Assembly: GCA_017444825.1 (NCBI GenBank)
Contig: JAFSVU010000054.1
Location: 20,169-84,168, forward strand
Direction: 5' to 3'
Length of the DNA stretch: 64,000 nucleotides
From: Clostridia bacterium
Lineage (GTDB): Bacteria > Bacillota > Clostridia > UBA1212
In this document: piece by piece, positions 407 to 61,949 of the stretch
How positions within the stretch are numbered: the first letter of the stretch is position 1
How the letters are laid out: each line of letters begins with the position of its first letter
Program-made: the position numbers and the translations under genes
The notes under the pieces: generated by a model
Told to the model about the DNA's origin: nothing
Database searches by the model: none
The model's input: the letters and a program-made list of their open reading frames with translations, nothing else

Positions 407-1432
407 ATGTTTGTTATGAAAAAAAGAAGTTTGATAGCATTATTTGCAATGATGCTCGTTTTGATACTGGCTCTTTCGGCCTGCGCTACGGTGCCTTCGG
501 ACAATGCTCCAACGGCGGCGCCGGACGGCGAAACCAATGCCACGGACGCACCTCCCGCGGACCCGACTAAGGATCCCTCCGAGACCCATCCACCCGCCAA
601 AGAGAACGTGGCCAAGGTCATACTCATCCTGGGCCAGTCAAACGCGGTGGGCGCCTCCAGTTCCGTGTACCTGAAGAACAAGGTGGACGCGGACCGGTAT
701 GATCTCATGAGGCGCGACGGTTACGAAAACGTGCGGATCGTGTACCACGCAGGCGAGGATGCCGCCACAAATTACAGGTCGAAGAAGATCGACACCATAT
801 CGTCCGCCAAGCTTTTTGACAAGGTGAAATTCGGGCAGTCTCTCACCACGCCTTACTTCGGCCTTGAGATAGGCATTGCGGAGTATCTCAGCACAGCCCA
901 TCCCGACGAGACTTATTACCTGATAAAGGTTGCGAGGGGCGGCGAGAGCCTCAGCCCCAAATTCCTGGAGGGCGGCGAGCTTTTCGAGAGGGCGATGACC
1001 ATCACCGAAGGTTCCCTGTCCGTTCTGAAAAGGGAGGGCATGACTCCTGAGATCATTGCCATCTGCTGGATGCAGGGCGAAAATGAGGGCAGCGTCAAGT
1101 CTCTGGCCGAGAGCTACGACAAGAGCCTGGAAAAGCTGGTGGAGGCCTTGAGAAGGCGGCTTGCGGAATATGCTCCCTGGAAAGGGATCCCCTTCATCGA
1201 CGGAGGTATATCCACCTACTGGCCTTACTACAAGGAACTCAACCGGAGCAAGATCAACTTTGCGGAGAGATCCGGCAACAACTACTTCATAGACGCGATA
1301 GGTCTCGGGATAACGACCGATCAGGAGCCCCCCGGACAGCCGGACCTTGCCCACCTGGACGCCGAGAGCATGCTGAAGCTGGGCATGGAATTCGGAAAAT
1401 ACGTGGACATGGCCTATGAGAAGGTCAAATAG
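407..1432 (+). CDS. Lipoprotein, sialate O-acetylesterase / SGNH carbohydrate esterase (SASA, DUF303-like)
   Basis: GAGGA RBS before ATG 407, lipobox LSAC, Pro/Thr linker, and motifs GQSN, WMQGENE and DLAH. Confidence 0.8.
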   Translation: MFVMKKRSLIALFAMMLVLILALSACATVPSDNAPTAAPDGETNATDAPPADPTKDPSETHPPAKENVAKVILILGQSNAVGASSSVYLKNKVDADRYDLMRRDGYENVRIVYHAGEDAATNYRSKKIDTISSAKLFDKVKFGQSLTTPYFGLEIGIAEYLSTAHPDETYYLIKVARGGESLSPKFLEGGELFERAMTITEGSLSVLKREGMTPEIIAICWMQGENEGSVKSLAESYDKSLEKLVEALRRRLAEYAPWKGIPFIDGGISTYWPYYKELNRSKINFAERSGNNYFIDAIGLGITTDQEPPGQPDLAHLDAESMLKLGMEFGKYVDMAYEKVK

Positions 1433-1474
1433 AACGGTAAATTTTATGAAATAACCAATGCAATAACCAATGTC

Positions 1475-1498
1475 AGGCGGGCTCCGGCCCGCCTTTTT
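1475..1498 (+). terminator. Intrinsic terminator
   Basis: AGGCGGG-ctccgg-CCCGCCT hairpin followed by a T run; flanked by an inverted ACCAAT/ATTGGT pair. Confidence 0.8.
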
Positions 1499-1502
1499 AT
1501 TG

Positions 1503-1531
1503 GTGCAAACGCGACTTCAAAGTGGTATAAT
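1503..1531 (+). promoter_or_regulatory. Extended -10 sigma-A promoter for the hydratase-cyclophilin operon
   Basis: GTGCAA-17 nt-TATAAT with TG at 1523-1524. Confidence 0.55.
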
Positions 1532-1586
1532 CAAAACGTATGCTTTCATTGAGCATTATCATTCGTATCAGAAAGGCGGTGTCCCA

Positions 1587-3827
1587 GTGATCACACTTAT
1601 CGAAAACGGCGTCTACTACGTGGACGGGACAATACAGGAAAAAGGGCTTCCGGGGGAAAGTGCCCGCGAAGCGTCAAAGAAGACCATAGCTGCAGGCATA
1701 TTGAAGGCCCATGACGAGGGCGACGGCGAGGGTCTGTTAAAGCTCAAATTCGACGCTCTTGCGTCTCACGATATAACTTACGTCGGTATCATCCAGACGG
1801 CCAGAGCCAGCGGGCTGGAAAAATTCCCGGTACCTTACGTGCTTACCAACTGCCACAACAGCCTCTGCGCCGTGGGCGGTACAATAAATGAGGACGACCA
1901 CGTTTTCGGTCTCTCCGCTGCGGTGAAGTACGGCGGCATATTCGTTCCTCCTCACCAGGCGGTCATCCACCAGTACATGCGGGAGATGATGAGCGGCTGC
2001 GGAAAGATGATCATCGGCTCTGACAGCCACACAAGATACGGAGCTCTCGGAACAATGGCCGTGGGCGAGGGAGGCCCGGAGCTTGTAAAGCAGCTCCTGG
2101 GAAGGAAATATGAGATCAAAAAGCCGGACGTGGTATTGGTTTATCTCAAGGGAAAACCGGGCCGCGGAGCAGGTCCCCAGGATATAGCCCTTGCCATCAT
2201 CGGAAAAGTGTTCAAGGCGGGTTTTGTGAAGAACTGCGTCATGGAGTTTGCGGGCCCCGGGATCGCAAATCTTTCGGTGGATTACAGAAACGGTATCGAC
2301 GTTATGACCACGGAGACCGCCTGCCTCAGCTCCATCTGGATGACGGACGAGAAGGTGAAGGATTACTACCGGATCCACGGCAGGGAGCAGGACTATAAAA
2401 AGCTGGAGCCCGGAAACGGCGCTTACTACGACAAGGCCATAGTGGTGGATCTTGACAAGGCGGAGCCAATGATCGCGCTTCCTTTCCACCCGGGCAATGC
2501 CTACACGCTTAAGGATTTCATCGCGAGTGCCGCGGACCTTCTCAGAGAGACCGAAAAACGGGCGTATGACGTGGTGGGCGAGAAGGCAAAGCTGTTCCCT
2601 CTTACATCCAAGGTCAGAAACGGCAAGGTCATGGTGGACCAGGGCGTCATCGCAGGCTGCTCGGGCGGCACCTACGAGAACATAACAAAGGCGTCTCACA
2701 TCTTAAAAGGCGGTTCCACCGGCTCCGGAAGCTACACGTTAAACGTATACCCCGCCAGCCAGCCCGTGAACCTGGCCCTCATGAAGAACGGGGCCATCGC
2801 GGATCTTATGAGCGCAGGCGCAGCGGTGAAGACCGCTTTCTGCGGACCCTGCTTCGGCGCAGGCGACGTTCCTTCGAACAACGCCTTCTCCATAAGGCAC
2901 ACCACCAGAAACTTCCCCAACAGAGAGGGCTCGAGACCTCAGGACGGACAGCTTTCCTGGGTGGCGCTTATGGATGCGATGTCAATTGCCGCGACCTCTG
3001 CGGCGGGCGGTGTGCTCACATCTGCTGCTGACGTTGATTTTGACGACAGTGTTCCCGCTTATCAGTTCGATGACTCAAGCTACAGGGCAAGGGTGTTTAA
3101 CGGTTTCGGCAAAGCCGAGAAAAAAGCCGATCTGGTATTCGGCCCCAATATCACCGACTGGCCCAAGATCCCCGCTCTTGAGGAAAACCTGCTGCTTTCG
3201 GTGGCATCCGTTATCTCCGACGAGGTGACCACCACCGACGAGCTCATCCCCAGCGGAGAGACCTCGTCCTACAGATCGAATCCTCTGAGACTGGCGGAGT
3301 TTGCCCTCTCAAGAAAGGACCCCGCATACGTGGCGGAGGCAAAGAGGGTGGCAAAAGCAAACGAACTGAAGCTGGAGGGCGCCTCCCCGGATATGTTTGA
3401 CGGTATCGAAGGCGCAGACCCGTCGGATACGGCTGTTGCCAGCGTTGTCGTGGCCAAGAGACCCGGCGACGGCTCCGCAAGAGAACAGGCCGCTTCCTGC
3501 CAGAGAGTTCTCGGCGGCGGGGCGAACATTGCCCTTGCATACGCCACAAAGCGCTACAGAAGCAATCTCCTCAACTGGGGCATGCTCCCCTTCATCACCG
3601 ACGACGAGTCGCTGTTTGAGGGCGGTCTCGACAGGGGCGACCGCATATTCATAAAGGGAATAAAGGCCTGGGTAGAAAGCGGACAGGATGGAATAAAGGC
3701 CGAAATATACGGTAAAGAAGGCAAAAAGAAGACTGTGACGCTGACCCTCGGGGACATCACCTCAAGCGAGCGGGAGGTGCTTCTCAAGGGCTGCCTCATG
3801 AACTACTACAAGAGTCAGAACAAATGA
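1587..3827 (+). CDS. Aconitase-family [4Fe-4S] hydratase (YbhJ-like)
   Basis: GTG start after AAAGGCGGT; motifs HDIT, GSDSHTRYG, AGCSGG, CGPCFG, TTRNFPNREG, TTDELIP and GDGSAREQA. Confidence 0.9.
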   Translation: MITLIENGVYYVDGTIQEKGLPGESAREASKKTIAAGILKAHDEGDGEGLLKLKFDALASHDITYVGIIQTARASGLEKFPVPYVLTNCHNSLCAVGGTINEDDHVFGLSAAVKYGGIFVPPHQAVIHQYMREMMSGCGKMIIGSDSHTRYGALGTMAVGEGGPELVKQLLGRKYEIKKPDVVLVYLKGKPGRGAGPQDIALAIIGKVFKAGFVKNCVMEFAGPGIANLSVDYRNGIDVMTTETACLSSIWMTDEKVKDYYRIHGREQDYKKLEPGNGAYYDKAIVVDLDKAEPMIALPFHPGNAYTLKDFIASAADLLRETEKRAYDVVGEKAKLFPLTSKVRNGKVMVDQGVIAGCSGGTYENITKASHILKGGSTGSGSYTLNVYPASQPVNLALMKNGAIADLMSAGAAVKTAFCGPCFGAGDVPSNNAFSIRHTTRNFPNREGSRPQDGQLSWVALMDAMSIAATSAAGGVLTSAADVDFDDSVPAYQFDDSSYRARVFNGFGKAEKKADLVFGPNITDWPKIPALEENLLLSVASVISDEVTTTDELIPSGETSSYRSNPLRLAEFALSRKDPAYVAEAKRVAKANELKLEGASPDMFDGIEGADPSDTAVASVVVAKRPGDGSAREQAASCQRVLGGGANIALAYATKRYRSNLLNWGMLPFITDDESLFEGGLDRGDRIFIKGIKAWVESGQDGIKAEIYGKEGKKKTVTLTLGDITSSEREVLLKGCLMNYYKSQNK

Positions 3828-3865
3828 CCGGGACCGGTCCAACAAGATATAAAGGAGATAACGAC

Positions 3866-4516
3866 ATGAAAAAAATTGCAAAAGCGGCGTCAATGATCCT
3901 TGCGGCGGTATTGGTTATTCTGTGCCTCGCCGGATGCGCCGGAAGCGGAGATGAATACAAAAACGCGCCGCTCCCGATAGTTACCATCGTGGTCAAGGAT
4001 TACGGAACCTTGACGGCGGAGCTTTACCCTGCCATCGCTCCGGAGACTGTCAAGAACTTTATCAGCTTGGCAAACAGCGGCTTCTACAACGGTCTCACCT
4101 TCCACCGCGTGATAAGCGGCTTCATGATCCAGGGCGGCGATCCCAAGGGCAACGGTGGTGGCGGTCCCGGCTACTGCATAAAGGGAGAGTACGAAGCAAA
4201 CGGCTTTAAGAACGAGCTAAAGCACACAAAAGGTGTCCTTTCCATGGCCAGAAAATCAAATCCTTACGTAAAACCCGACCCCTACATGGACAGTGCGGGC
4301 TCCCAGTTCTTTATCATGCAGGCGACGGCGACCCACCTCGACGGAAGCTATGCGGCCTTCGGGAAGGTCATTGACGGACTTGAAATAATCGACACCATCG
4401 CGGGACTCCCCACCGATTCGAACGACAAACCGAGGGTGACCGTTACCATCGAATCCATAACCGTTGACACAAAGGGAATCACGTACGGCGAGCCCAAAAA
4501 GCTTCCCGAAATCTGA
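3866..4516 (+). CDS. Cyclophilin-type peptidyl-prolyl isomerase, lipoprotein
   Basis: AAAGGAGA RBS, lipobox LAGC, FHRVISGFMIQGGDP, SAGSQFFI. Confidence 0.92.
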   Translation: MKKIAKAASMILAAVLVILCLAGCAGSGDEYKNAPLPIVTIVVKDYGTLTAELYPAIAPETVKNFISLANSGFYNGLTFHRVISGFMIQGGDPKGNGGGGPGYCIKGEYEANGFKNELKHTKGVLSMARKSNPYVKPDPYMDSAGSQFFIMQATATHLDGSYAAFGKVIDGLEIIDTIAGLPTDSNDKPRVTVTIESITVDTKGITYGEPKKLPEI

Positions 4517-4535
4517 TATCAAAAAGGAGAAACCA

Positions 4536-5051
4536 ATGAACCCGACAGTAACACTTGCAATAAAAGACCTGGGAACCGTCAAGATAGAGCTTATGCCCGA
4601 CATCGCCCCGAATACAGTGAAGAATTTCATCTCCCTTGTTAACAAGGGCTTCTACGACGGCCTCAGATTCCACCGCGTGATCAGCGGCTTCATGATACAG
4701 GGCGGCGACCCCAAGGGCAACGGCACAGGCGGCCCGGGCTATTCCATCAAGGGCGAGTTCTCCTCCAACGGCTTCGCGAACAGCCTCAAGCACGAGCGCG
4801 GCGTCATCTCGATGGCGAGGGCCATGAACCCCAATTCCGCAGGCTCCCAGTTCTTCATCATGCACAAGGACTCACCCCATCTTGACAGGCAGTACGCGGC
4901 TTTCGGCAAGGTCACAGAGGGCATCGAAGTGGTGGACAAGATCGCTGCGACGCCAACAGACTACTACGACGCGCCTCTTAAGCCTGTGATAATCGAAAAA
5001 GCCGTATGCGATACCTTCGGCGTGGAATACGGCGAGCCGGAGAAGGTCTGA
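4536..5051 (+). CDS. ppiB: Cyclophilin-type peptidyl-prolyl isomerase, cytoplasmic
   Basis: AAGGAG RBS, FHRVISGFMIQGGDP, SMARA..PNSAGSQFFI, no signal peptide. Confidence 0.92.
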   Translation: MNPTVTLAIKDLGTVKIELMPDIAPNTVKNFISLVNKGFYDGLRFHRVISGFMIQGGDPKGNGTGGPGYSIKGEFSSNGFANSLKHERGVISMARAMNPNSAGSQFFIMHKDSPHLDRQYAAFGKVTEGIEVVDKIAATPTDYYDAPLKPVIIEKAVCDTFGVEYGEPEKV

Positions 5052-5123
5052 ACCTCCCGTTTTTTACGGTAAAAACCAATGTGACCGCCCCCGATGGGCG
5101 AAAAAATAGCAAAAAAATAGTGC

Positions 5124-5152
5124 TTGATTTGACGGGACGTGTTTGATATAAT
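5124..5152 (+). promoter_or_regulatory. Sigma-A promoter of rpsF-ssb-rpsR
   Basis: TTGATT-17 nt-TATAAT with extended TG. Confidence 0.75.
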
Positions 5153-5157
5153 ACGTC

Positions 5158-5213
5158 CCGTTCCTTGCCCTCGAGTTGGTTTGAGGGCCGAAAGTCCAGA
5201 AGGAGGTGAAATC
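5158..5213 (+). ncRNA. S6:S18 ribosomal protein leader (autoregulatory cis RNA)
   Basis: TCCTTGCCCTC...GAGGGCCG...AGTCCAGAAGGAGGTG matches the Bacillota rpsF leader pattern: anti-SD pairing, inner stem and conserved CCG. Confidence 0.8.
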
Positions 5214-5504
5214 ATGGTTAAATACGAGACAATGTTTATCGTTAACCCTGAAATCGGTGAAGAAGCGGTGGCCGCTGTAGCCGAGAAATATCAGGGTCTG
5301 ATCGCAGAGAACGGCGAGATCGAGAGCTTTGGCGAGTGGGGCGGAAAGAGAACCCTCAGATACCCCATCAACGATATCAAAGAAGGTTGCTATTATCTCT
5401 GTGTCTTCAAGGCTGAGCCCACATTCCCGGCTGAGCTGGAGAGACTTTACAGGATCAACGACTCCATTCTCAGATTCCTTATCATTAACAAGGACGCTGA
5501 GTGA
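5214..5504 (+). CDS. rpsF: 30S ribosomal protein S6
   Basis: MVKYETMFIVNPE...WGGKRTLRYPIND...ILRFLI; strong SD. Confidence 0.97.
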   Translation: MVKYETMFIVNPEIGEEAVAAVAEKYQGLIAENGEIESFGEWGGKRTLRYPINDIKEGCYYLCVFKAEPTFPAELERLYRINDSILRFLIINKDAE

Positions 5505-5598
5505 TCGGAACCCGGCGTGTATGTTTACACGTAAAAGTAGTATTGGTTAATCAGGCAGTTTAAGAATCAGATAGACAGTTTAGAAGAGGAGAGAAATT

Positions 5599-6048
5599 AT
5601 GAACAGAGTTATTCTTATGGGACGTCTCGCAAGAGATCCTGAACTTAGGTACACACAGTCTAACAACATTGCCCAGTGCAGCTTTACCGTTGCGGTAGAC
5701 AGAATGGGCGGAAAACAGGCCGACGGCACTACAAAAGCAGATTTCATCAACTGCGTCGCATGGCGCCAGACGGGTGAATTCATCAACAGGTATTTTACAA
5801 AAGGAAACAGGATACTTGTGATTGGTTCGCTCCAGATTCGTGATTATACGGACAGAGACGGAAAGAAAGTCTATGTTACAGAAGTTATAGTGGATAACGC
5901 GGAGTTTTGCGAGAGCAAGGCTCAATCTTCATCCTCCTCATCCTTCGGGACAGCCGCTACACCGGCTGATTTCGGCGGTGCGACGGATCCCGCCGGTGGC
6001 GATGCGGGCTACTTCCCGCTGCCCAAGGACGACTTTGTGCCATTCTGA
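5599..6048 (+). CDS. ssb: Single-stranded DNA-binding protein
   Basis: MNRVILMGRLARDPELRYT, ADFINCVAW, acidic tail ending DDFVPF. Confidence 0.97.
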   Translation: MNRVILMGRLARDPELRYTQSNNIAQCSFTVAVDRMGGKQADGTTKADFINCVAWRQTGEFINRYFTKGNRILVIGSLQIRDYTDRDGKKVYVTEVIVDNAEFCESKAQSSSSSSFGTAATPADFGGATDPAGGDAGYFPLPKDDFVPF

Positions 6049-6099
6049 TAGATTGCCGGGTATGCCCGCAAGGGCTTGATTAATTTAGGAGGAACTGTT

Positions 6100-6375
6100 A
6101 TGCCTTACGCAAAAAAAGAAGGTAAAGGTGCCGATAAATACGAGGGTAAGGGCCAGATGAGCAAGAAACCCAGAAAAAAGGTTTGCCGTTTCTGCGCCGA
6201 TAAGACCGAGCATATCGATTACAAGGAATTCCAGAAACTCAGGAACTTTGTTACTGAGAGAGGTAAGATCCTTCCGAGAAGAATGACCGGAACCTGCGCT
6301 AAGCACCAGAGAGAGCTGACAACAGCTGTCAAGAGAGCCAGACACGTTGCGTTGCTGCCGTTTACAGCAGAGTGA
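6100..6375 (+). CDS. rpsR: 30S ribosomal protein S18 (zinc-binding form)
   Basis: KVCRFC...IDYK...[19 protein letters not shown]...ARHVALLPF. Confidence 0.97.
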
Positions 6376-6399
6376 TGTAAAGCTCATGTAACAATAGCT

Positions 6400-6437
6400 A
6401 AAAGAGAGATCACAGTGATTTATGGTCTCTCTTTTTT
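6400..6437 (+). terminator. Intrinsic (probably bidirectional) terminator after rpsR
   Basis: AAAAGAGAGATCA...TGGTCTCTCTTTTTT. Confidence 0.8.
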
Positions 6438-6525
6438 ATGCTACTGCGATGGGCTACTATTGCTACATAAATCAATAACACTTTGAAACTTTCACGTCCA
6501 AAACAAAAAGCTCAGCTAAGGGCCC

Positions 6526-7536
6526 CTAAACTTTTTTTTCGCGGGTTTCAGCGATTTCTGAGGGCGCCATGTTTTCCTTCTTCTTTTTCTTTATCACCGT
6601 CAGGACCACAACGACCGCCGCGGCTGTGAACAGGAATATACCCCCGCTCAGATAATACGGCCAAATCACAGGTTTGACGAACGCGTCCGGGAAATGTGTT
6701 TTAAAATCATCAATATTTACGCCGAAATAAAGCTCGATATTTGAATAATCTCCGGTCGCGGGGTGAAATTCAGTTGCGACAGTCTCTGTCATTTCGGATG
6801 ATATTCCGCCGTCTCCATCATTTTCAATAAACTCTTTGATCATGTCAACTGCGCGTTCAAGCTCTTCCCCGACCCGGATTATTCTTTTGCCGTTTGTAAC
6901 ATTTACATCCCAGATAGTATTCATAATCAAATAAAAGAATTCGTCATAATCATCTTTCACATAAAAACAGGTTCCAACATAAGATACATTGACAAGCCTA
7001 ACAAAACGTGGATCTATGATTTCGCTTCTTCCGCTTTTTATCCTTATATCTTCCGCAAAATCAGCATAATTCAATGACATGAGCTCATCCGGATATTCTT
7101 CGTTGATTGTGTCTATTCCCTCCATTCCTTGCCTGATTGCTTTTCCGTTCTTTAACTCAACAACAAGAACCGCACTGTAGAAAGGTTGTGATCTTCCCAT
7201 ATATTGCAGATTTCGCAGGCTGACCGCATACGAATGTTCTCCGCCAGTTGTCACAGGAGAAAGAGCTATTGCGTCCCCGCATTTATATCCTTTCGCGGTT
7301 TCTTTGTCATACAAAATATAATAGTAAAACGGAGTAACAGAACCGGGAACAACACACTCTCTTTCAACATGCGGAAGTATATCAAGCACCGCTTCCTGCT
7401 CTTGTTTTGAAGCATAAACTGTCAGTGTCTTTTCACATTCCCCGTTCACACCAAAGGCAATAGTTGCTGATATTGAAACCACAACCAAAGCCAAACATAG
7501 CGAAGAAAAAAACAGTATTATCTTTTTCATAGCCAT
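6526..7536 (-). CDS. Uncharacterised exported protein with C-terminal membrane anchor (partner copy 2)
   Basis: N-terminal signal peptide, C-terminal TM helix plus poly-Lys, GGAGAGG RBS; paralogue of 7890-8879. Confidence 0.8.
   Translation of the reverse strand: MAMKKIILFFSSLCLALVVVSISATIAFGVNGECEKTLTVYASKQEQEAVLDILPHVERECVVPGSVTPFYYYILYDKETAKGYKCGDAIALSPVTTGGEHSYAVSLRNLQYMGRSQPFYSAVLVVELKNGKAIRQGMEGIDTINEEYPDELMSLNYADFAEDIRIKSGRSEIIDPRFVRLVNVSYVGTCFYVKDDYDEFFYLIMNTIWDVNVTNGKRIIRVGEELERAVDMIKEFIENDGDGGISSEMTETVATEFHPATGDYSNIELYFGVNIDDFKTHFPDAFVKPVIWPYYLSGGIFLFTAAAVVVVLTVIKKKKKENMAPSEIAETREKKV
6546..6896. repeat. Homology block B, copy 2 (3' part of partner gene)
   Basis: Highly similar to 7904-8272 at DNA level, with one internal indel. 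Confidence 0.9.
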
Positions 7537-7549
7537 ATCAATCCTCTCC

Positions 7550-7842
7550 CTAATTACAGATATAAAATTCGTTCATCTTAAACTCGAATCCCCGCAGGTT
7601 AACAAAACCGGACGAAAACAGTTGTTCTTCGGTTAACGCATATGGTTTACCGTTTGCAGGATTCCACAGAGTATAAAATGTTGTTCCTTCATCATAAGAT
7701 TTGCCGGTCGCTACCATAGCATGGCCATACGATTCATTGTTAATCTTTATCATCGCAGAAACATAGACATATCTTCCGTTGTCAAGTTCATTATTGAATG
7801 TGTTTATTAACGAAGGTGTCCAGCCCAGAAGAAAAACTTTTT
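7550..7842 (-). pseudogene. Orphan C-terminal fragment of a papain-like cysteine protease
   Basis: Reads KVFLLGWTPSLINTFNNELDNGRYVYVS-AMIKINNESYGHAMV...LWNP...FYICN. It has no catalytic Cys region and no credible start. Confidence 0.8.
7761..7842. repeat. Homology block A, copy 2
   Basis: 80 of 82 nt identical to 9106-9187 by manual alignment. Confidence 0.92.
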
Positions 7843-7889
7843 GCCTGCCGGCATACTGCCCGTGATCAAAACAGACTGCCTGGAAACTG

Positions 7890-8879
7890 TTACCTTCCTT
7901 CGATTTCAGCGATTTCTGAGGGCGCCATGTTTTTCTTCTTTTTCTTTATCACCGTCAGAACCACAACGACCGCCGCGGCTGAGAACAGGATTATACCCCC
8001 GCTCAGAAAATACGGCCAAATCACAGGTTTGACGAACGCGTCCGGGAAATGAGTTTTAAAATCATCGATATTTACGCCAAAATAAAGCTCAATATTTGAA
8101 TAATCTCCGGTCGCGGGGTGAAATTCAGCTGCGACAGTCTCTGTCATACCGGATGATGTTCCGCCGACTCCACTTCTGATGGATATTAATCTTTCTTTCT
8201 CAATAAACTCTTTGATCGTATCAACTGCGCGTTCGAGCTCTTCCCCGACCCGGATTATTCTTTTGCCGTTTGTTATATCCGTTTCTCCTATATCCCAGAA
8301 GAATTGGTAAAAGAATTCATCCTCACCGTCATTTATGTAAAAGCACAGGCCTGCAGAAGGTATGTGAACAAGACGGACAAATTGCGGATCAATTAACTCA
8401 GTTTTACCGCTCTTGATTCTTATGTCCTCGGCCATAACAGAGTAGTTAACCCCTATGTTAACCTCCGGATGACACTGGAGTACATGTTCCTTTACAAGTC
8501 CGTTCTTAACACTGATATCCATAAGTCCGCTTTTATAATGCTCTCCGTAATATGTGAATTCTTTCAGAGTAACAAGGTACATATGTTCGCCGTTTATTAC
8601 CGAGCTTTTTAACTCAATTTTATCTCCGGCTTTATAACCAACGTCCTTTGCACTGTTATATATGCTGAAAGTGTAGACGGGAGTGATTTCTTCTTGAATA
8701 ACGTAATCCCTTAATGCCGACGGGATTGCCTCCATTATCGCTTCCTGCTCTTCTTTCGATGCATAAACTGTTAGGATCTTTTCACCATTTTCGGCAAAAC
8801 TGATCAGAAAACAGCCTGATATAACTATGATCATGATTACTAAGAAAGATAAAAAAAATGAACATTTATTTTTACGCAT
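7890..8879 (-). CDS. Uncharacterised exported protein with C-terminal membrane anchor (partner copy 1)
   Basis: Signal peptide, C-terminal TM plus poly-Lys; C-terminal ~110 aa nearly identical to 6526-7536 apart from one indel. Confidence 0.8.
   Translation of the reverse strand: MRKNKCSFFLSFLVIMIIVISGCFLISFAENGEKILTVYASKEEQEAIMEAIPSALRDYVIQEEITPVYTFSIYNSAKDVGYKAGDKIELKSSVINGEHMYLVTLKEFTYYGEHYKSGLMDISVKNGLVKEHVLQCHPEVNIGVNYSVMAEDIRIKSGKTELIDPQFVRLVHIPSAGLCFYINDGEDEFFYQFFWDIGETDITNGKRIIRVGEELERAVDTIKEFIEKERLISIRSGVGGTSSGMTETVAAEFHPATGDYSNIELYFGVNIDDFKTHFPDAFVKPVIWPYFLSGGIILFSAAAVVVVLTVIKKKKKNMAPSEIAEIEGR
7904..8272. repeat. Homology block B, copy 1
   Basis: Highly similar to 6546-6896. Confidence 0.9.
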
Positions 8880-8894
8880 TTAACCTACTCTCTT

Positions 8895-9737: not shown

Positions 9738-9801
9738 ATCCGAAAGAAAAAAGAGGGCTCCGCGCTTTGCGTGTTATTGCCGGTAAAACTTATAAAAGCG
9801 T

Positions 9802-12885: not shown

Positions 12886-12914
12886 AAACCGTACTCCATA
12901 AAAAATTTTTCCAT

Positions 12915-12942
12915 ATTATAGCATAAAAAAAAATATATACAA
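12915..12942 (-). promoter_or_regulatory. Extended -10 promoter for the HD-GYP gene
   Basis: Minus strand TTGTAT-16 nt-TATAAT with TG extension. Confidence 0.5.
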
Positions 12943-13054
12943 CATCGGACTTGGCTGACGACCCTCCTTTGCAGGCGCTTTTCTCTTGTAATCTCCCGCG
13001 GTTTTTATTATCATTCATCTTACCCGGACTAATTGTTTTAAGAAGGAGAATGAT

Positions 13055-48418: not shown

Positions 48419-48444
48419 AACAGTCCTAAAAAGGAGAGAAGAAA

Positions 48445-48717: not shown

Positions 48718-48741
48718 CCGGTCACAGCTTGATATAAAGAT

Positions 48742-48784
48742 GGCGGGGCGCCCCGGACCAAAAGAAGGGTCCGGGCGCCCCGCC
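48742..48784. terminator. Strong GC hairpin between convergent genes
   Basis: GGCGGGGCGCCCCGGACC-8 nt loop-GGTCCGGGCGCCCCGCC. Confidence 0.7.
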
Positions 48785-48806
48785 TGGTGTAATTGGTTAA
48801 AGATAT

Positions 48807-51914: not shown

Positions 51915-51941
51915 GTCAGGCCCTCCAGCGTTAAATTATAG

Positions 51942-53420: not shown

Positions 53421-53609
53421 CAAAATTACCTCTCTTGAAAATACTGTATGCCCGCAGAGGGGCCGCTTTTTCGCAACCCTTAATTTATCATAAAACAGCC
53501 GCCATTTCCACCTCAATTTACGATGAAACGTTTGAACAGGCGCTTCTCCCTGTGGTAAAATATCACCGTCCGGGGCATGGAATTGATCCCGGGGAAGGGA
53601 GTATTGGTT

Positions 53610-54074
53610 ATGGCGGAACTCACCAATGCAATAAGGCTTTTAAAGGACGCCGGAGCGTTTATCGATGCCTATGAAATAACCAATGACTTCACCGACGCGG
53701 CGGAGCTTGCCGCGAAGATGGGCCTTGATCCCGACCGTGTATTCAAGACGCTTGTTACTGTCGGAAAGAGCGGCACCCACCACGTGTTCATGGTCCCCTC
53801 CCGGGCAAAGCTGGACCTTAAAAAAGCGGCGGCTGCCTGCGGCGAGAAATTCGTAGAGATGATCCCTCAGAAGGATCTCCTCAAAACAACAGGATACGTC
53901 CACGGAGGCTGCTCCCCGGTGGCTATGAAAAAGCAGTTTGAGACCTTCATTGACGAGACCTGCGTGCTTTTTGAGAACATCTGCTTTTCGGCAGGCCGCG
54001 TTGGCGAGCTCGCAGACGTTAAGACAGGGGTTTTTATCGATAAATTCGGCGTTACCGTCGCCGACATCACTTAG
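53610..54074 (+). CDS. ybaK: Cys-tRNA(Pro) deacylase
   Basis: [29 protein letters not shown]. Confidence 0.9.
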
Positions 54075-54100
54075 TATCAACAATGATGAGGAAATTGGTT

Positions 54101-55048
54101 ATGAAGATTACAGTACTTGACAGGAACACAGTGACAATGGGTGACCTTGACTTCGGTCCCCTGGAACGGCTTGGCGAAGTATCCTATTTCGACGCTCTCC
54201 CCGCAGATGAAGTGGTCTCCGCCTGCAGAGGCGCGGATGCGGTCATCATCAATAAAGCCAAAATGACCAGGGAGGTCATAGAGGCACTGCCCGATCTCAA
54301 ATTTATCGGCCTTTTCGCCACCGGCTATAACAACGTCGACTGCGCCGCGGCCCGCGAGCACGGAATTGACGTGGTAAACGCACCGGGCTACAGCACCGAC
54401 TCCGTTGCGCAGCTGGTCTTTGCGTTCATACTTTCGTTTGCCACAAGCATCTCGGAATATGACCGGTCCGTCCACCGCGGCGAATGGGTCTACTCAAAGA
54501 CTTTTGCATATTTTCCCTACAGGCTGACGGAACTTGCGGGAAAGACTCTCGGAGTGGTGGGCTTCGGTGCCATAGGACGCAAGGTGGCGACTATCGGAAG
54601 TTCCCTCGGCATGCGGGTCATCATCCACTCCCGCCGCCTTTACGACGATTGCGTATACGAGCAGGTGGGAAAAGAGCAGCTGTTCCGCGAGAGCGACTTC
54701 CTCTCCCTGAACTGCCCACTGAACCCCGGGACAGCGAAATTTGTCTCAAAGGAGACTCTTTCGCTCATGAAGCCCACGGCATTCATTATTAACACAGCCA
54801 GGGGCGGCGTCATCGACTCCGAAGCCCTTGCGGAGGCGCTGGACAGCGGCGTCATAGCCGGCGCAGGCATTGACGTGCTGGAAAACGAACCCATGCGCGA
54901 GGACGACCCTCTCCGCACAGCCAAAAACTGCATGATCACGCCGCACATAGCCTGGGCATCAAAAGAAGCCCGGGAACGTCTCATCGTCATGGTGACGGAG
55001 AGTCTCGGGCTCTGGATGAAAGGGGAAAAGCGGTTCGTCGTTAACTGA
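54101..55048 (+). CDS. D-2-hydroxyacid dehydrogenase (glycerate dehydrogenase-like)
   Basis: ATGYNNVD, GFGAIG, INTARGG, DVLENEP, TPHIAW. Confidence 0.92.
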   Translation: MKITVLDRNTVTMGDLDFGPLERLGEVSYFDALPADEVVSACRGADAVIINKAKMTREVIEALPDLKFIGLFATGYNNVDCAAAREHGIDVVNAPGYSTDSVAQLVFAFILSFATSISEYDRSVHRGEWVYSKTFAYFPYRLTELAGKTLGVVGFGAIGRKVATIGSSLGMRVIIHSRRLYDDCVYEQVGKEQLFRESDFLSLNCPLNPGTAKFVSKETLSLMKPTAFIINTARGGVIDSEALAEALDSGVIAGAGIDVLENEPMREDDPLRTAKNCMITPHIAWASKEARERLIVMVTESLGLWMKGEKRFVVN

Positions 55049-55056
55049 CCGGCGCT

Positions 55057-56295
55057 TCAAACTGTTTCATTAAAAATTTTTAATATAAGGCCGGCAGTGG
55101 AACCCGGGAACGCCTTTGTCAGGCTGTCGACGGTCTCGCTGAGGCCTTCCGGTGTGAGCTCACCCGTTACAAAAGCGGTGGTACTGCCGCAGCTGACCAT
55201 CTGAAGTCCTTCGAGGCCCGGCTTGAATTCGCCGTCGGGGATATTGTCGAGGCGGATGTAGTACCTTGAGGGCTCTCCGATGGGGGCGATCTCGGCCTCG
55301 TTTGAAATGAAGCCGGGCTTCACAGCATCGTTCTCAGCTCCGATGAGGAGCTCAACGATGTCGCCGCAGATCGCATTGGCGGTGGGAAGCTTGCCGGCGC
55401 CGATGCCGTAGAAGAACGTGTTGCCGGTGTACTCGCCGCGGATGAGGATGCCGTTGTAGGCGCCGCTTACCGAGCAGAGGAAGCTGGACTTCATCACCAG
55501 CTGGGGCTCGACACAGGCCGTGACAGCGCCGTTCACAAGGGCGGTGCGGGCGATGAGTTTAATGCGGCCGCCGAGAGCTCCGGCGTTTGCAATGTCGCCG
55601 GCTGTTATCTTTCTGATACCCGTGGTGGGTATTTTTTTGTAATCAACGAATTTGCCGTAGGCAATGGATGAAAGAATGGCGATCTTGCGGGCCGGGTCGA
55701 AGCCGTCCACGTCGGAGGAGGGATTGGCTTCTGCATATCCGCGGGTCTGGGCTTCCCAGAGGGCCTCGTCGAAGGAGAGACCGTCCTCTTCCATGCGGGT
55801 GAGCATGTAGTTGGTGGTGCCGTTGACCACGCCCATGATGCCGCTGATGACGTTGGCGCCCATGCAGATCCTGAGGGGACGGATGATCGGCACGCTGCCG
55901 CCCACGCTGGCTTCGTAGAGGAAGCGGACGCCCTTGTCGTATGCAATGCCTTCAAGCTCTCTGCCGTGCTCTGCCACCAGGTCCTTGTTTGACGTGACCA
56001 CGTGCTTGCCTGCCAAAAGGGCCTTCTTTGTTATACTGTACGCGAAATCGAGGCCGCCGACGGTCACTACCGCAACGTCGATCTCTTCATCCTCCAGTAC
56101 GTTCTTCGGATCCTTTACCGCGTACTGCTCGTAAGGTGTGCCGGTGAGGTCTCTTATGTCGAGAATGGATTTAAGAGCAACCTGCCTCGAAAAACGGGCG
56201 CTGAGTTTGCCGGACTCGTTAATGAGTATATCGGCAACGCCGGAACCGACTACACCGCAGCCGATGACCGCGATCTTGAAAGCTTTATCTGTCAT
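55057..56295 (-). CDS. hom: Homoserine dehydrogenase
   Basis: GCGVVG, TSNK, YEASVGGSVP, NGTTNY, GYAEANP..DVDG.D, GAGKLPTA. Confidence 0.95.
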   Translation of the reverse strand: MTDKAFKIAVIGCGVVGSGVADILINESGKLSARFSRQVALKSILDIRDLTGTPYEQYAVKDPKNVLEDEEIDVAVVTVGGLDFAYSITKKALLAGKHVVTSNKDLVAEHGRELEGIAYDKGVRFLYEASVGGSVPIIRPLRICMGANVISGIMGVVNGTTNYMLTRMEEDGLSFDEALWEAQTRGYAEANPSSDVDGFDPARKIAILSSIAYGKFVDYKKIPTTGIRKITAGDIANAGALGGRIKLIARTALVNGAVTACVEPQLVMKSSFLCSVSGAYNGILIRGEYTGNTFFYGIGAGKLPTANAICGDIVELLIGAENDAVKPGFISNEAEIAPIGEPSRYYIRLDNIPDGEFKPGLEGLQMVSCGSTTAFVTGELTPEGLSETVDSLTKAFPGSTAGLILKIFNETV

Positions 56296-57775
56296 ATATG
56301 AAATCCTCCGATTTTTCCGGCATCATTTCCGGTTTCACTTTATCCTTGAATCTGATCTCCTTCTCGAACAGTCCGCGGAGCGGGGCCGGGATCGCTATGC
56401 CCGTCTTCTCTGAGAGCAGGGCGGAGATGCAGTCCTCACCTGTTCCTTCGGGAATCTCATTGGCGAATAGACTCTCGGCGACACAGGCGTTGAATTTGAA
56501 GGGGCTTGCCGTGGACACACATACCGTGTGGCGGGCCTTGTCCGAACACTTGCCGTAAACGCTGACGCCAACGGCGGTGTGGGGATCTATCAGATAATTG
56601 TACTTATTATATATACGGCCGATCTCTTCCGAGACCTCAGCCCGGACCGAGCATCCCGCAGCGAAATCCTTTTGAATGAACTTCAGAGCTTCGGAGGGCA
56701 CCCGGTACACGCCAAACCTTGACAGCCTGTCCATGAGTCCTCTCACGGCGGAGCAGTCCTTTCCGAGGGCGTCGTAAAGAAGCCTTTCGAGATTTGACGA
56801 AACCAATATGTCCATCGCCGGTGAGGTGGTGGTCACAAAGTCACGGTTTTTGTCGTAAACGCCGGTGTTCAGAAAATCCGCCACCACGTTGTTTTCATTG
56901 CTGGCGCAGATGATCTTTCCAACGGGGAGGCCGGCTTTCTTTGCGTAGTAGCATGCAAGTATGTCGCCGAAGTTTCCTGTGGGGACGCAGAAGTCGATGA
57001 TGTCGCCGAATTTCACTGTACCTCTCGAAACCAATACCGCGTAGCTGAAGAAATAGTAAACGATCTGGGGAAGGAGCCTTCCGAAGTTGATGGAATTGGC
57101 GCTTGAGAGCATCTTACCGTCGCGGAGAAGCTTTTCCTCGAATGCCTTGTCAGAGAATATTTTCTTAACGCCTGTCTGGCAGTTGTCGAAGTTGCCCTCG
57201 ATGGCCACCACGTTAACGTTGTTTCCGGCCTGGGTCACCATTTGAAGCTTCTGGGTCTCGCTGACACCTTCAGAAGGGTAGAAGACCATGATCTTTACGC
57301 CCGGAACATCCTTGAAGCCTTCAAGGGCAGCCTTGCCGGTGTCTCCTGAGGTGGCGGTGAGGATCGTGATCTCTTTTGACTCCCCACGTTTTTCCACCGC
57401 TTTTTTCATGTAGCGGGGCAGGATCTGGAGCGCCATGTCTTTAAATGCGCAGGTGGGTCCGTGCCAGAGCTCCAGAACGGAAAGGTCCTTGTCGAGAGTG
57501 GTGACTGCTGCCGGGCCTCCGGGAAATTTGGCGTCGGTGTAGGCGCCATCTACGCACTCGTTTATCTCGCCTTCGGTGAAATCATCCGCGTAACGCGACA
57601 TGACCAATGCGGCAATGCTCTTGTAATCCATGCCGCACATATCTTTTATCTCGGCGGGCGTGAACAGGACTTCTTCCTCGGGAACGAACAATCCGCCGTC
57701 GGAAGCGAGGCCTTTTATGACAGCTTCGGAAAATGAAGTTCCGGCGTCTGCGCCCCTTGTGCTTCTGTAAGTCAT
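56285..57775 (-). CDS. thrC: Threonine synthase
   Basis: YRSTRG, GLASDGGLFVP, HGPTCAFKD, ATSGDTG, PTGNFG, DPHTAV. Confidence 0.96.
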   Translation of the reverse strand: MTYRSTRGADAGTSFSEAVIKGLASDGGLFVPEEEVLFTPAEIKDMCGMDYKSIAALVMSRYADDFTEGEINECVDGAYTDAKFPGGPAAVTTLDKDLSVLELWHGPTCAFKDMALQILPRYMKKAVEKRGESKEITILTATSGDTGKAALEGFKDVPGVKIMVFYPSEGVSETQKLQMVTQAGNNVNVVAIEGNFDNCQTGVKKIFSDKAFEEKLLRDGKMLSSANSINFGRLLPQIVYYFFSYAVLVSRGTVKFGDIIDFCVPTGNFGDILACYYAKKAGLPVGKIICASNENNVVADFLNTGVYDKNRDFVTTTSPAMDILVSSNLERLLYDALGKDCSAVRGLMDRLSRFGVYRVPSEALKFIQKDFAAGCSVRAEVSEEIGRIYNKYNYLIDPHTAVGVSVYGKCSDKARHTVCVSTASPFKFNACVAESLFANEIPEGTGEDCISALLSEKTGIAIPAPLRGLFEKEIRFKDKVKPEMMPEKSEDFIYDR

Positions 57776-57963: not shown

Positions 57964-57992
57964 TTGACAGAAATATGTCAATATTGTAAAAT
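57964..57992 (+). promoter_or_regulatory. Sigma-A promoter of rpoBC
   Basis: TTGACA-17 nt-TAAAAT; the -35 is half of a TTGACA-N6-TGTCAA palindrome. Confidence 0.75.
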
Positions 57993-58038
57993 GCTAACTT
58001 GCAGTGTTTCATTATGGGACAGTGTCGCATTCAAAGAT

Positions 58039-58067
58039 ATACTACCAAAAAACCGGGTGGTTGTCTA
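58039..58067 (-). promoter_or_regulatory. Putative antisense promoter in the rpoB leader
   Basis: Minus strand TAGACA-17 nt-TAGTAT with TG extension. Confidence 0.5.
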
Positions 58068-58160
58068 CTGAAATTTTTATAAAAATCCGTCTCCGACGGG
58101 TGCCAATAAATCTAATACTTTCTTTTTTCGTTGAGAAAAGCTTTGAGGTGATTATAGAAA

Positions 58161-61100
58161 ATGGTTAACGTACATGAAGTCTCACACGGTAAGAGTAAAC
58201 GGTACAGCTATTCGAGAAACGAAGAAGTTTTCGAGATGCCGAATCTCATTGCCATTCAAAAGGAATCCTATGAGCATTTTTGCAAAGTAGGCCTCAAGGA
58301 AGCGTTTCGTGATATTTCTCCTATTACCGACAGTACAGGTAAGTTACAGCTGGAATTTGGCGAATATACTATCGATTCGAAGACCAATTACACTATCGAA
58401 CAGTGCAAAGAGCGTGACGCCACGTATTCTTCACCGCTTAAGGTCATTGTGCGCTTTATCAACAGGAACAATGACGTTCAGCTTGAAGAGCCCATCTTCC
58501 TTGGCGACTTCCCGAAGATGACTGATAACGGTACCTTCGTGCTCAACGGTGCGGAGCGTGTTATCGTCAGCCAGCTGGTGAGGTCTCCCGGCGTGTACTT
58601 TGAGAAGAACGTTGATAAGGCCAAGAACCGTGAAACCATCAATATGACCATTATACCTAACCGCGGCGCATGGATCGAGTGCGAGATCGACCATACGAAC
58701 GTGGTACAGGTCAGGATCGACAGAAACCGCAAGGTGTGCATGACCACATTCCTGCGTGCTCTCGGTTTCAGCAGCGACGAGGACATTGAGGATCTTCTCG
58801 CTCCGAAGCGTCACCCCATGGCCACTCCCGAGGCACTTGCAGAGTACAATCTCGAACTGGACCAGAAGGTAAAGAGTACCATCGAGAAAGAGACTCCCGC
58901 AAGGACAGAGGAAGAGAAGCTCATGAGAGCAGGCGACAGAGCTCTCCTTGAGATCCACAGAAAGCTCAAACCCGGCGAGCCCGCCACAGTGGAATCCGCC
59001 AGGATGCACCTCTACGGACTTCTTTTCGAGCCCAGAAGGTATGATCTGGCAAAGGTCGGCCGCTATAAGATAAACAAGAAGCTTGCACTCTCCGCGAGGA
59101 TCGCAGGCTACGAGACACTGTTCGACATCGTTAACGAAGAGACAGGCGAGGTTCTGGCAAAGGCAGGCACTCTTCTCACCGAAGACCTTGCAAGAGAGAT
59201 CCAGGACGCAGGCATCAACGACGTCGTGATCAAGGTTCCGAAGAAGAACCCCGTTCGCGTCATCGGTAACAACACCGTTGATATGAGAGGCTTTGTTGAT
59301 TTCGATCCCGCCGAGATCGGCATCGAGGACAGAGTCAACTACACAGCTCTCACCGAGATACTGGACGCCTACAGAAACGAGCCCGTCGAGGAGCAGAAGA
59401 AGAGATTCCAGGAAGGCATCCACGAGCTTCTTCCGAAGACCGTTACTATTAATGACATTATAGCTTCTTTAAACTATATACTTAATATCGGCGAAGGCAT
59501 CGGTTCCTTCGACGACATCGACCACCTCGGAAACAGAAGGATCCGTTCGGTGGGCGAGCTTCTCCAGAACCAGTTTCGCATCGGTCTTGCAAGACTCGAG
59601 CAGGGCGCAAGAGACCGTATGTCTTCCATGGAAGTCAGCACGATCACTCCTGCGGCTCTCGTGAACACAAGACCCATCAATGCTGCTATCAAAGAGTTCT
59701 TCGGATCCTCTCAGCTGTCCCAGTTCATGGATCAGACGAACCCGCTGGCAGAACTCGCTAACAAGAGACGTCTCTCGGCCCTCGGCCCCGGCGGTCTCAA
59801 CAGAGACAGAGCCACGTTCCAGGTCCGCGACGTTCACTATACACACTACGGACGCATGTGCCCCATTGAGACTCCCGAAGGTCCTAACATCGGTCTTATC
59901 GGTTCTCTCAGTACGTATGCGCGTGTCAACGGCTACGGCTTCATCGAGGCTCCCTACCGCCGCTATGACAAGTCGAGAAACGTTGTAACGAAGGACATCG
60001 ACTACCTCATGGCTGACGAAGAGGACAGATACATCGTCGCTCAGGCTAACGAGCCCCTCGACGAGGAGGGCCATTTCATCAATTCGAAGGTCGTCTGCCG
60101 CTACAGAGACGAATTCATCCAGGTGGAGCCTGAAAAAGTTGACTACATGGACGTTTCGCCTAAGCAGGTGGTCTCCGTCGGCGCAGCTATGATCCCGTTC
60201 CTCGAGAACGACGACGCATCCCGTGCACTGATGGGATGTAACATGCAGCGTCAGGCCGTTCCGCTCATCAGATCCGAAGCGCCTATCGTGGCCACAGGTA
60301 TCGAGTACAAGGCCGCCGTTGATTCCGGCTCCGTGGTGCTCGCAAGAAAGTCCGGTGTCGTAAAGACCGTCTCCGCAAAAGAGATCATTATCGACAATGA
60401 CGACGGAACCGAAGACACATATCACCTCCTGAAGTTCATGCGCTCCAACCAGGATACGTGCATCAACCAGAAGCCCATCGTTAAGAAGGGTGAGCGCGTG
60501 TTCGAAAGACAGGTCATCGCAGACGGTCCTTCCACAGATAAGGGTGAGATCGCGCTTGGCAGAAACATGCTGATCGCCTTCATGACCTGGGAGGGCTTCA
60601 ACTACGAGGACGCCGTACTTATCAGCGAAAAAGTAGTTAAAGAAGATATCTACACATCCATCCACATCAAGGTGTATGAGTGTGAAGCAAGAGAAACAAA
60701 GCTCGGTCCCGAGGAGATCACAAACGACATGCCTCAGATCGGTGATGACCAGAAAAAGTACCTGGATTCCGAAGGTATCATCATGGCCGGCGCCGAGGTC
60801 AAGGCCGGCGACATCCTCGTCGGAAAAGTCACACCGAAGGGCGACAAAGAGAACGACAACTACCAGGAACTTCTCAACGCCTTCATGGGACCCATGGCCA
60901 ACGACACAAAGAACACGCCTCTCAGAGTTCCTCACGGCGAGGGCGGATTTGTCGTAAAAGTAGAACAATACAACCGCGAGAATTCGGATGAACTGGCCAA
61001 TGGCGTTCTCCGCAAGGTCTGCGTATACGTTGCCCAGAAGAGAAAGCTCTCCGTCGGTGACAAGATGGCCGGCCGCCACGGAAACAAAGGTGTTGTCTCC

Positions 61101-61949
61101 AGGATCCTTCCCGAAGAGGATATGCCTTACATGCCCGACGGCACGCCCGTTGAGATCGTTCTCAACCCCCTCGGCGTTCCTTCCCGTATGAATATCGGTC
61201 AGGTGCTTGAGGTACACCTTGGCTTTGCCGCCAAGTCCCTCGGCTGGAAGATCGAGACACCTGTTTTCGACGGTGCATCGGAGAAAGACATAGTTGAGAC
61301 TCTCCGCGAAGCGGGACTCCCCGAAGACGGAAAGATCCAGCTTTACGACGGAAGAACAGGTGAGCCTTTCGACAACAAGGTCACAGTCGGTATCATGTAT
61401 TACCTCAAGCTGCACCACCTCGTTGACGATAAGATCCATGCCCGTTCCATCGGACCGTACTCCCTCGTTACACAGCAGCCTCTCGGAGGAAAAGCTCAGT
61501 TCGGCGGACAGAGATTCGGTGAAATGGAAGTCTGGGCTCTCGAAGCTTATGGCGCTGCCCACACTCTGCAGGAGATCCTCACCATTAAGAGTGACGACGT
61601 CTACGGCAGAAATCAGGCTTACAAGGCCATCAAAGACGGCGCATCCCTGCCGGTTCCCGCAATTCCGGAGTCCTTTATGGTTCTCATCAAAGAGCTCCAG
61701 GGTCTGGCTCTCAGCGTAAAGATGTACACTACGGACGGCACACCTATCAACCTCAAAGAAGCTGAGGAAGAGTACGTGAAGAATCCGAGCCTGTTCAGGG
61801 GCAGACGCGCCGACAGGAGCAGAAAGGCCGCCAAGGCTGAAGACGCTCCGGCAGAGCAGAAAGAACAGGAAGAGCAGCCCGTGGCGCAGCCGGATGACAT
61901 TGGTTTCGAGGATGTTCTCGATGACGATTCAGATGATTCTGAGGTTTGA
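58161..61949 (+). CDS. rpoB: RNA polymerase beta subunit
   Basis: [53 protein letters not shown]. Confidence 0.99.

Follow-up and report, generated by a model that had tools for sequence, protein, structure and literature searches.

Two saturating non-palindromic octamers in a Clostridia genome, candidate 'self' words of which one follows a clade-limited type IV pilus

The 64,000-nt stretch of Clostridia bacterium contig JAFSVU010000054.1 analysed here (hereafter the window) corresponds to C40:20169-84168 of G000, a 2.45-Mb assembly of 56 contigs (largest 231 kb) that is 97% complete. An earlier note, made from the letters of the window alone, had drawn attention to an over-represented octamer family in it. 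We find that two non-palindromic members of this family, CGCCAATG and AACCAATG, outnumber every other 8-mer of the genome in raw count, with 1254 and 867 copies, respectively, and that both exceed expectation by a ratio of observed to expected copies (O/E) of 10-22 under Markov models of order 1-3. They form two layers: CGCCAATG is common to a sub-clade of five species, and AACCAATG is specific to the species of G000. Our tentative reading, to which we give a probability of about 0.45, is that CGCCAATG and (W)AACCAATG, where W is A or T, are DNA-level 'self' words resembling the uptake signal sequences (USS) of Pasteurellaceae and the DNA uptake sequences (DUS) of Neisseriaceae, and that they may have been built up by a molecular drive linked to natural transformation.

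The window itself holds 20 copies of AACCAATG/CATTGGTT, twelve on the forward and eight on the reverse strand, and every coordinate of the original hand count is exact; dinucleotide shuffles predict 1.88 copies with a maximum of 6, and none of 100 shuffles reaches 20. The 13 copies of the variant AACCAATA also lie exactly where they had been placed, against 1.23 expected, while the roughly 30 or more copies claimed for CGCCAATR amount to 39 (30 ending in G and 9 in A) against 4.26 expected. The enrichment extends well beyond this stretch, since words occur on every contig of at least 5 kb, the seven contigs without any being all shorter than 5 kb, and contigs above 10 kb carry 0.44-1.40 words per kb. 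The weaker variants AACCAATA and CGCCAATA are present genome-wide in 211 copies (O/E ~5 against the synonymous shuffle described below) and 267 copies, respectively, and are counted with the two main ones wherever we refer to four words.

We considered whether the words could stem from codon usage, from dipeptide content, from a bias in codon pairs or from an artefact of assembly or binning, an explanation to which we attach hardly any credence. It is true that one codon phase, A-ACC-AAT-G, dominates in both orientations and that the relatives of the words, CGNCAAKG, match NNC-ATT-GNC-G codon patterns. Genes were called with a crude model of open reading frames (ORFs), which gives 1827 ORFs over 86% of the genome, and codons were permuted within each gene so that protein and codon usage were both kept (n = 20). 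Against this synonymous shuffle, AACCAATG is found in 329 sense copies versus 34.0 (O/E 9.7) and 375 antisense copies versus 17.6 (O/E 21.4), and CGCCAATG in 398 sense copies versus 45.6 (O/E 8.7) and 716 antisense copies versus 66.0 (O/E 10.9). Under the codon-aware null that had been named as a possible refutation, O/E thus ranges from 8.7 to 21.4, far from 1. In the main phase, 262/595, 251/827, 310/727 and 543/1239 of the synonymous opportunities are filled (30-44%), where codon usage predicts 21, 9, 37 and 57. Nor is the enrichment confined to one frame: all three phases in both orientations and the intergenic DNA contribute copies, phase 1 alone giving 27 versus 3.0 expected. Called genes are separated by 1121 short gaps (10-300 nt each, 102.6 kb in all), which contain 82 copies of AACCAATG versus 1.5-3.9 expected and 46 of CGCCAATG versus 1.3-3.0, i.e. 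15-55 times the expectation. Codon or dipeptide bias is therefore ruled out by the synonymous and codon-order shuffles, by the occupancy of opportunities and by the short-gap counts. As for an artefact of assembly or binning, it is contradicted by the co-occurrence of both words on all sizeable contigs and by the recurrence of CGCCAATG in the assemblies of four other species and in one metagenome contig.

The words are narrowly defined. The family MRCCAATR first proposed is too loose, as the octamers of the form NNCCAATG number 867 with the prefix AA and 1254 with CG, and the intermediate prefixes AG (97) and CA (126) are not enriched. The family is better written as AA or CG followed by CCAAT and then by G in preference to A, with W favoured before AA; positions 4-6 are invariant and position 8 weakly accepts A. 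In 92% of the copies of AACCAATG the base at -1 is A or T, alike in genes and between them. Beyond this W and weak preferences at -2 and -3, the flanks have no context in common, which rules out a longer repeat or a mobile element around them. Near-matches to CGCCAATG display a graded excess (16.5x, 2.2x and 1.07x with 0, 1 and 2 mismatches, respectively), and those to AACCAATG drop more steeply (11.8x, 1.15x and 0.73x). Under the maximal-order model, the excess is present already in the embedded 5-mers and 6-mers CCAAT, CAATG, AACCAA and CGCCAA. An excess of at least 3x stays after summing over any one position, and AACNAATG summed over N occurs 992 times versus ~295 expected at zero order. 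A bias acting at one base, as in very short patch (VSP) repair, therefore cannot be the cause, and the pressure acts on the whole word.

This result bears on the proposal, also raised in the earlier note, that the words are a methylation mark. We regard a target of methyltransferase or restriction type, whether the mark of an orphan methylase or a product of VSP-like repair, as very improbable. Type III, Type IIG and BREX targets are typically non-palindromic words of 5-8 bp, which speaks for such an origin, and palindromes such as CGATCG (O/E 0.47) are avoided in G000, so that restriction pressure exists or existed in this genome. Restriction targets are, however, usually avoided and not enriched, and a repair bias confined to one position can yield ~4x at most. 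Moreover, G000 has no match to the PF00145 (C5), PF01555 (N6_N4), PF02086 (D12) or PF07669 (Eco57I-type) methylases, nor to Vsr, and its only matches to PF02384 (N6_Mtase) are a remnant of 121 amino acids (aa) and a 115-aa open frame on a 2-kb contig; an intact methyltransferase of these five Pfam families was thus not found in this 97% complete assembly, and no methylase family tracks the five word-rich species. The methylation mark hence gains no support. We also note that AGATCT (O/E 0.65) and TTGGCC/GGCCAA (0.48) are low in G000, and that the 121-aa remnant, a truncated hsdM-like gene at C6:111183-111461 (L173:7151-7516, reverse strand) covering the first third of PF02384, adjoins a Schlafen/AlbA_2-HATPase_c_4 gene and an HTH-Peptidase_M78 gene.

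AACCAATG reaches 0.80 copies per kb in the short gaps, whereas the 704 copies in 2,111,325 nt of coding DNA amount to 0.33 per kb; its density in the 50 nt that flank genes is about threefold that within genes, in keeping with the placement near gene ends and in short gaps first described in the window. Forward and reverse counts are balanced genome-wide (425/442 for AACCAATG, 617/637 for CGCCAATG). Replication polarity is absent for both words: the G-rich and C-rich strands carry 321 versus 348 copies of AACCAATG and 426 versus 544 of CGCCAATG, the latter split being in line with gene orientation (1167 versus 253 genes). On the local scale the spacing of the words is close to Poisson, and pairs of the four words within 60 nt have no orientation preference (++35, --45, +-35, -+34). 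Regarding the close pairs reported in the window, the tandem 1453/1465 is confirmed, and the inverted partners at 1498 and 53621 turned out to be one-off variants, CACCAATA and CACCAATG.

The words are rare in DNA of foreign origin. The largest word-free stretch of the genome is a prophage (C36:52969-99980, with tape measure, portal and terminase genes), which holds 5 copies in 47 kb versus ~41 expected. In the window, the AT-rich island was rightly described as free of words: all four are absent between 5549 and 12152. Overall, the signal is genome-wide and non-polar, acts at the level of DNA, is depleted in foreign DNA and is due to neither codon nor dipeptide bias, which supports the earlier interpretation in part. 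As side observations, two ORFs of the island (6526-7536 and 7890-8879, both on the reverse strand) match no Pfam family at E <= 1e-4; the large terminase of the prophage (loci L174-L176) has LAGLIDADG/Hom_end matches, which suggests an intein-like insert; and the same prophage encodes a 1246-aa protein with a C-terminal ADP-ribosyltransferase exoenzyme domain.

Both polarity and prophage depletion matter for a signal that would act after DNA entry, either as a Chi-like stop for AddAB or through heteroduplex correction towards the word strand, so that word alleles would be preferentially fixed; transformation would supply the DNA without being sequence-selective itself. A whole-word conversion bias of this kind would yield the same saturation, the same cost to proteins and the same depletion in prophage, and G000 does have an AddA-like gene (E 4e-147, under the equivalog cut-off). 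HIP1, the hyper-abundant octamer GCGATCGC of cyanobacteria, has been reported to raise transformation in a homology-dependent manner (bioRxiv 10.1101/2024.09.10.611283). Nevertheless, the words lack the polarity of Chi and of the FtsK-orienting polar sequences (KOPS), an identity with which is thereby ruled out, and AddAB would be expected in the congeners poor in the word as well. We know of no sequence-directed mismatch correction of an 8-mer, and we consider a post-entry signal unlikely. Known Chi and KOPS words share the orientation of replication; together with the SpoIIIE recognition sequences (SRS) they resemble the present words as over-represented words of 5-8 bp typical of host DNA and differ from them by this polarity and by a much lower fold excess.

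We searched 30 relatives of G000 (G001-G030; one genome per species, several of them incomplete), the genus consisting of G000 and seven congeners. CGCCAATG is hyper-abundant in G001 (1549 copies), G002 (928), G005 (1237) and G006 (1669), hence with G000 in five of the eight species of the genus; it is not in the congeners G003 (34) and G004 (61), and it is at background, with 7-93 copies, in the 22 genomes G009-G030. AACCAATG is hyper-abundant in G000 only and at background in all 30 relatives, the seven congeners having 15-60 copies. Rankings of the top words of relatives were read from DNA samples. In the samples of the CGCCAATG-rich species, CGCCAATG, together with CGCCAAGG, is the top word, and its flanks vary by species, CCGCCAAT being enriched in G001, G005 and G006 and CCGCCAA depleted in G000. 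No comparable word stands out in the 140 kb sampled from G003, the 127 kb from G004 or the 60.5 kb from G007, where the excess is ~5x at most, e.g. for CGTTCCCG. A scan of metagenomes with MutS returned one close contig at 85% identity and another at 73%, the former carrying 28 copies of CGCCAATG and none of AACCAATG in 22.7 kb. Separately, the samples of the word-poor G003 and G004 (L111-L124) have a mild excess of CGTTCCCG (52 versus 10.6 and 49 versus 10.3), and in G003 CGAAAACG occurs 88 times versus 27; CGTTCCCG and CGAAAACG share the form CG-NNNN-CG, which resembles CGNCAAKG on the opposite strand.

The distribution of CGCCAATG coincides with that of a candidate machine. At C45:~67.4-75.1 kb, G000 has a type IV pilus cluster made of three prepilin-like genes, a 404-aa gene, PilD, PilC and PilB, with PilT 11 kb upstream; ComEC, DprA and a ComEA-like HHH_3 protein are also encoded. 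The DNA of the pilus cluster matches G001, G002, G005 and G006 only, and a protein search of the 31 genomes finds PilB orthologs, at 87-88% identity, in exactly these four. All remaining T2SSE matches within the genus reach ~35% identity over the ATPase core, and both paralogs of this sort in G000 are of TadA/VirB11 type. Apart from the homologs at 41-42% in G015 and G019, taken up below, the identity in the other 23 genomes with a PilB match is ~30-40% over the ATPase core only, G023 has no PilB match in this search, and PilT-like second matches are present in G002 and G006. The PilB/PilT pilus was thus found, as far as the genus is concerned, in the word-rich species and in no others. Since ComEC is present in 28 of the 31 genomes, the pilus is the clade-limited part of the machinery. 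Among the functions suggested at the outset, an uptake sequence thus gains support from the matching distribution of the pilus. Directly 3' of pilB lies a 922-aa gene (C45:75133-77901; L281:11134-13902) with a GAP1-N2 (GTPase-associated protein 1) domain, which is 61-64% conserved in G001, G005 and G006.

To follow the words between species we compared 400 kb of G005 with G000, at ~76% DNA identity; this test bed was used because rpoB holds one copy only. Aligned CGCCAATG sites are common to the two genomes in 38 of 127 cases (30%) versus 16% for all 8-mers, and aligned AACCAATG sites in 0 of 59, the G005 counterparts of the latter being diverse. Only 2 of these 59 read CGCCAATG in G005, so AACCAATG is not a converted CGCCAATG. 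Codons within AACCAATG are identical in amino acid to G005 in 59.6% of cases (62/104) versus 81.1% over 80,169 aligned codons; many new sites therefore cost, or exploited, a protein change. Within the window, the 3.8 kb of rpoB (58161-61949) carry a single word where ~3 would be average, and highly constrained genes may resist the words.

These comparisons also bear on a selected chromosomal motif of the HIP1 kind, for which a DNA-binding protein associated with the nucleoid, segregation or repair would read the duplex, selection would keep about one site per kb, and the pilus would be a coincidence of shared ancestry. The words occur on both strands and share with HIP1 their hyper-abundance inside and outside coding sequence, with a fold excess in the same range (HIP1 being over-represented 15- to 300-fold; PMC5861425), and, in the case of CGCCAATG, the sharing of orthologous sites above background, also reported for HIP1 (PMC5861425). 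The 30% of shared sites is, however, about what we would expect if two genomes each independently filled ~44% of their synonymous opportunities. In addition, some 870 new sites in one species since the split, many at the cost of an amino-acid change, are much to ask of weak selection per site. Two orphan methylases recognise HIP1, which is palindromic (PMC4390886, PMC13756078), whereas the present words lack such symmetry and the search for a cognate methyltransferase found none. HIP1 also has a periodic spacing at 10-90 kb; in the contigs of G000, spacing was examined on the local scale, where it is Poisson-like. Altogether we hold a HIP1-like motif to be possible and rather doubtful.

The likeness to USS and DUS is broader. 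Each of these systems has a short non-palindromic word that recurs about every kb on either strand, inside genes as well as outside them, and more densely where constraint is low. The word is rare in prophage, is accompanied by near-matches in graded excess, imposes a cost on protein sequences and exists in lineage-specific dialects, in genomes that have type IV pilus and ComEC/DprA genes. The present words differ in belonging to another phylum (Bacillota, Clostridia), in being two co-equal words in one genome and in their length (8-9 bp versus 9-12 bp for USS and DUS). In USS and DUS, close inverted pairs form terminators, and the DUS-binding pilin ComP is basic; here we see neither an excess of inverted-pair terminators nor, among the three pilins of the cluster, a basic ComP-like one. 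We do not claim membership of the USS/DUS family, whose defining property is preferential uptake and in which the terminator pairs not seen in excess here are frequent.

Several observations weigh against the uptake reading. Genome-wide, close direct or inverted pairs of the four words are not in excess (58 gaps of 30 nt or less versus 83.5 expected), and this holds for inverted pairs able to form terminators. The three pilins of the cluster, which diverge fast (35-39% identity), are acidic, with isoelectric points of 4.5-5.1 in G000, and G000 has no extra pilin to account for its second word. It is awkward to assign to one and the same reader two words that are set apart by two neighbouring letters and whose AG and CA intermediates are not enriched. 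G007 and G008, both assemblies being less than 80% complete, have a weak excess of CGCCAATG (154 versus 55 for the control and 112 versus 48) and no PilB ortholog was found in them. Conversely, G015 and G019 have PilB at 41-42% identity, yet no hyper-abundant 8-mer appears in their samples (200 kb and 87.5 kb), so that the pilus is not sufficient and these two genomes provide no independent replicate of the link between pilus and word. Finally, pilus and word coincide in one clade and thus represent one evolutionary event, with which any clade-specific gene would correlate equally.

With these reservations, the uptake reading can be put as follows. The type IV pilus system would give the sub-clade natural transformation, and word-bearing DNA would be preferred either by a component of the uptake system or early in processing; alleles bearing the word would then be taken up and recombined in more often. 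Such a molecular drive, of which a model for uptake sequences is set out in PMC1939737, could have spread the word over both strands of genes and intergenic DNA alike, to a density of about one per kb. CGCCAA(T/G)G would be the older word of the clade, and the species of G000 may later have gained a second, equally strong specificity, WAACCAATG, sharing the CCAATG core. The statistics, the phylogenetic distribution and the gene content are observations; the bias of uptake or recombination towards the word, and the protein that would read it, are inferred.

Table 1. Positions of the words and of the word-free stretch in the window.
Feature	Position	Strand	Remark
AACCAATG	532..539	+	
AACCAATG	1453..1460	+	first unit of tandem ATAACCAATGCA; intergenic, immediately 5' of a terminator-like hairpin
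AACCAATG	1465..1472	+	second unit of tandem ATAACCAATGCA
AACCAATG	4531..4538	+	
AACCAATG	5074..5081	+	
AACCAATG	17706..17713	-	
AACCAATG	19863..19870	+	
AACCAATG	20475..20482	+	
AACCAATG	20860..20867	+	
AACCAATG	25091..25098	-	
AACCAATG	25277..25284	+	
AACCAATG	27148..27155	-	
AACCAATG	32039..32046	-	
AACCAATG	35405..35412	-	
AACCAATG	40997..41004	+	within mutS
AACCAATG	41415..41422	-	within mutS
AACCAATG	41736..41743	+	within mutS
AACCAATG	51852..51859	+	
AACCAATG	53678..53685	+	
AACCAATG	61898..61905	-	3' end of rpoB, sole copy in rpoB
CGCCAATG	18..25	-	
CGCCAATG	12153..12160	-	
CGCCAATG	12804..12811	+	
CGCCAATG	13501..13508	-	
CGCCAATG	13870..13877	-	
CGCCAATG	13929..13936	+	
CGCCAATG	14229..14236	-	
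CGCCAATG	14974..14981	+	
CGCCAATG	16266..16273	+	
CGCCAATG	18793..18800	-	
CGCCAATG	23507..23514	-	
CGCCAATG	25987..25994	-	
CGCCAATG	26730..26737	-	
CGCCAATG	29572..29579	-	
CGCCAATG	31079..31086	-	
CGCCAATG	32724..32731	-	
CGCCAATG	36405..36412	+	
CGCCAATG	37477..37484	-	
CGCCAATG	38311..38318	-	
CGCCAATG	41033..41040	+	
CGCCAATG	41300..41307	-	
CGCCAATG	42405..42412	+	
CGCCAATG	43677..43684	+	
CGCCAATG	44502..44509	+	
CGCCAATG	45144..45151	-	
CGCCAATG	46229..46236	-	
CGCCAATG	47536..47543	-	
CGCCAATG	50051..50058	+	
CGCCAATG	55374..55381	-	
CGCCAATG	56458..56465	-	
Weaker variant AACCAATA, 13 copies	2134..57036	- and +	- starts: 2134, 3909, 5541, 18309, 19035, 21218, 53602; + starts: 18969, 19185, 33991, 35951, 56801, 57029
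Weaker variant CGCCAATA, 9 copies	119..45555	- and +	- starts: 119, 17150, 32777, 34246, 43472, 45548; + starts: 15208, 23354, 44905
Word-free stretch, 6.6 kb	5549..12152		none of the four words; takes in the AT-rich island (GC 0.43 at 6001-10000)

The genome contains a second repeat family, unrelated to the words, of tandem units of ~34-48 nt with a consensus of about GGGGTGCCG..CAAGGTAATAAGTAA.AGGTAAGAGGTAA. It is found in G000 e.g. at C5:10251-10351, C6:975-1267 and 7134-7292, and C7:30110-30213, and its core, TAATAAGT, occurs 370 times, just 41 of them within called genes. The copies often lie near contig ends, and the repeat therefore probably breaks the assembly. In the window only isolated 8-mer copies are present, at 911 (reverse strand), 15193 (forward) and 56602 (reverse).

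The suspicion that these words had gone undescribed agrees with the literature searched, in which no paper was found that names them as over-represented, the papers that contain any of the four words being unrelated; judged by titles and the beginnings of abstracts, none of the papers listed for 'DNA uptake sequence' and Firmicutes reports an uptake sequence in this phylum. To our knowledge, sequence-biased uptake is established only in two proteobacterial families, and the origin and change of such words are still argued from models. The present genomes may, though the odds remain somewhat below even, represent the first case of sequence-specific DNA uptake from a Gram-positive lineage, the Clostridia, tied to a clade-limited type IV pilus and caught with a second uptake word being born: the old CGCCAATG and the new WAACCAATG would stand at equal saturation, with ~870 new genic sites acquired since the split from the congeners, partly by amino-acid changes. 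Uncultured Clostridia display the same genomic signature as those two families, with a clear boundary between presence and absence that runs through one genus, a candidate machine of matching distribution and a species with a freshly added second word. Should the uptake bias be confirmed, they would offer a natural time series for the birth of uptake sequences and a new handle on what limits gene flow between anaerobes of the gut; should it not be, some new mechanism would have to account for a non-palindromic word that reaches saturation without a methylase. In both cases the words mark species and clade sharply, which serves binning and the recognition of foreign DNA in these genomes.

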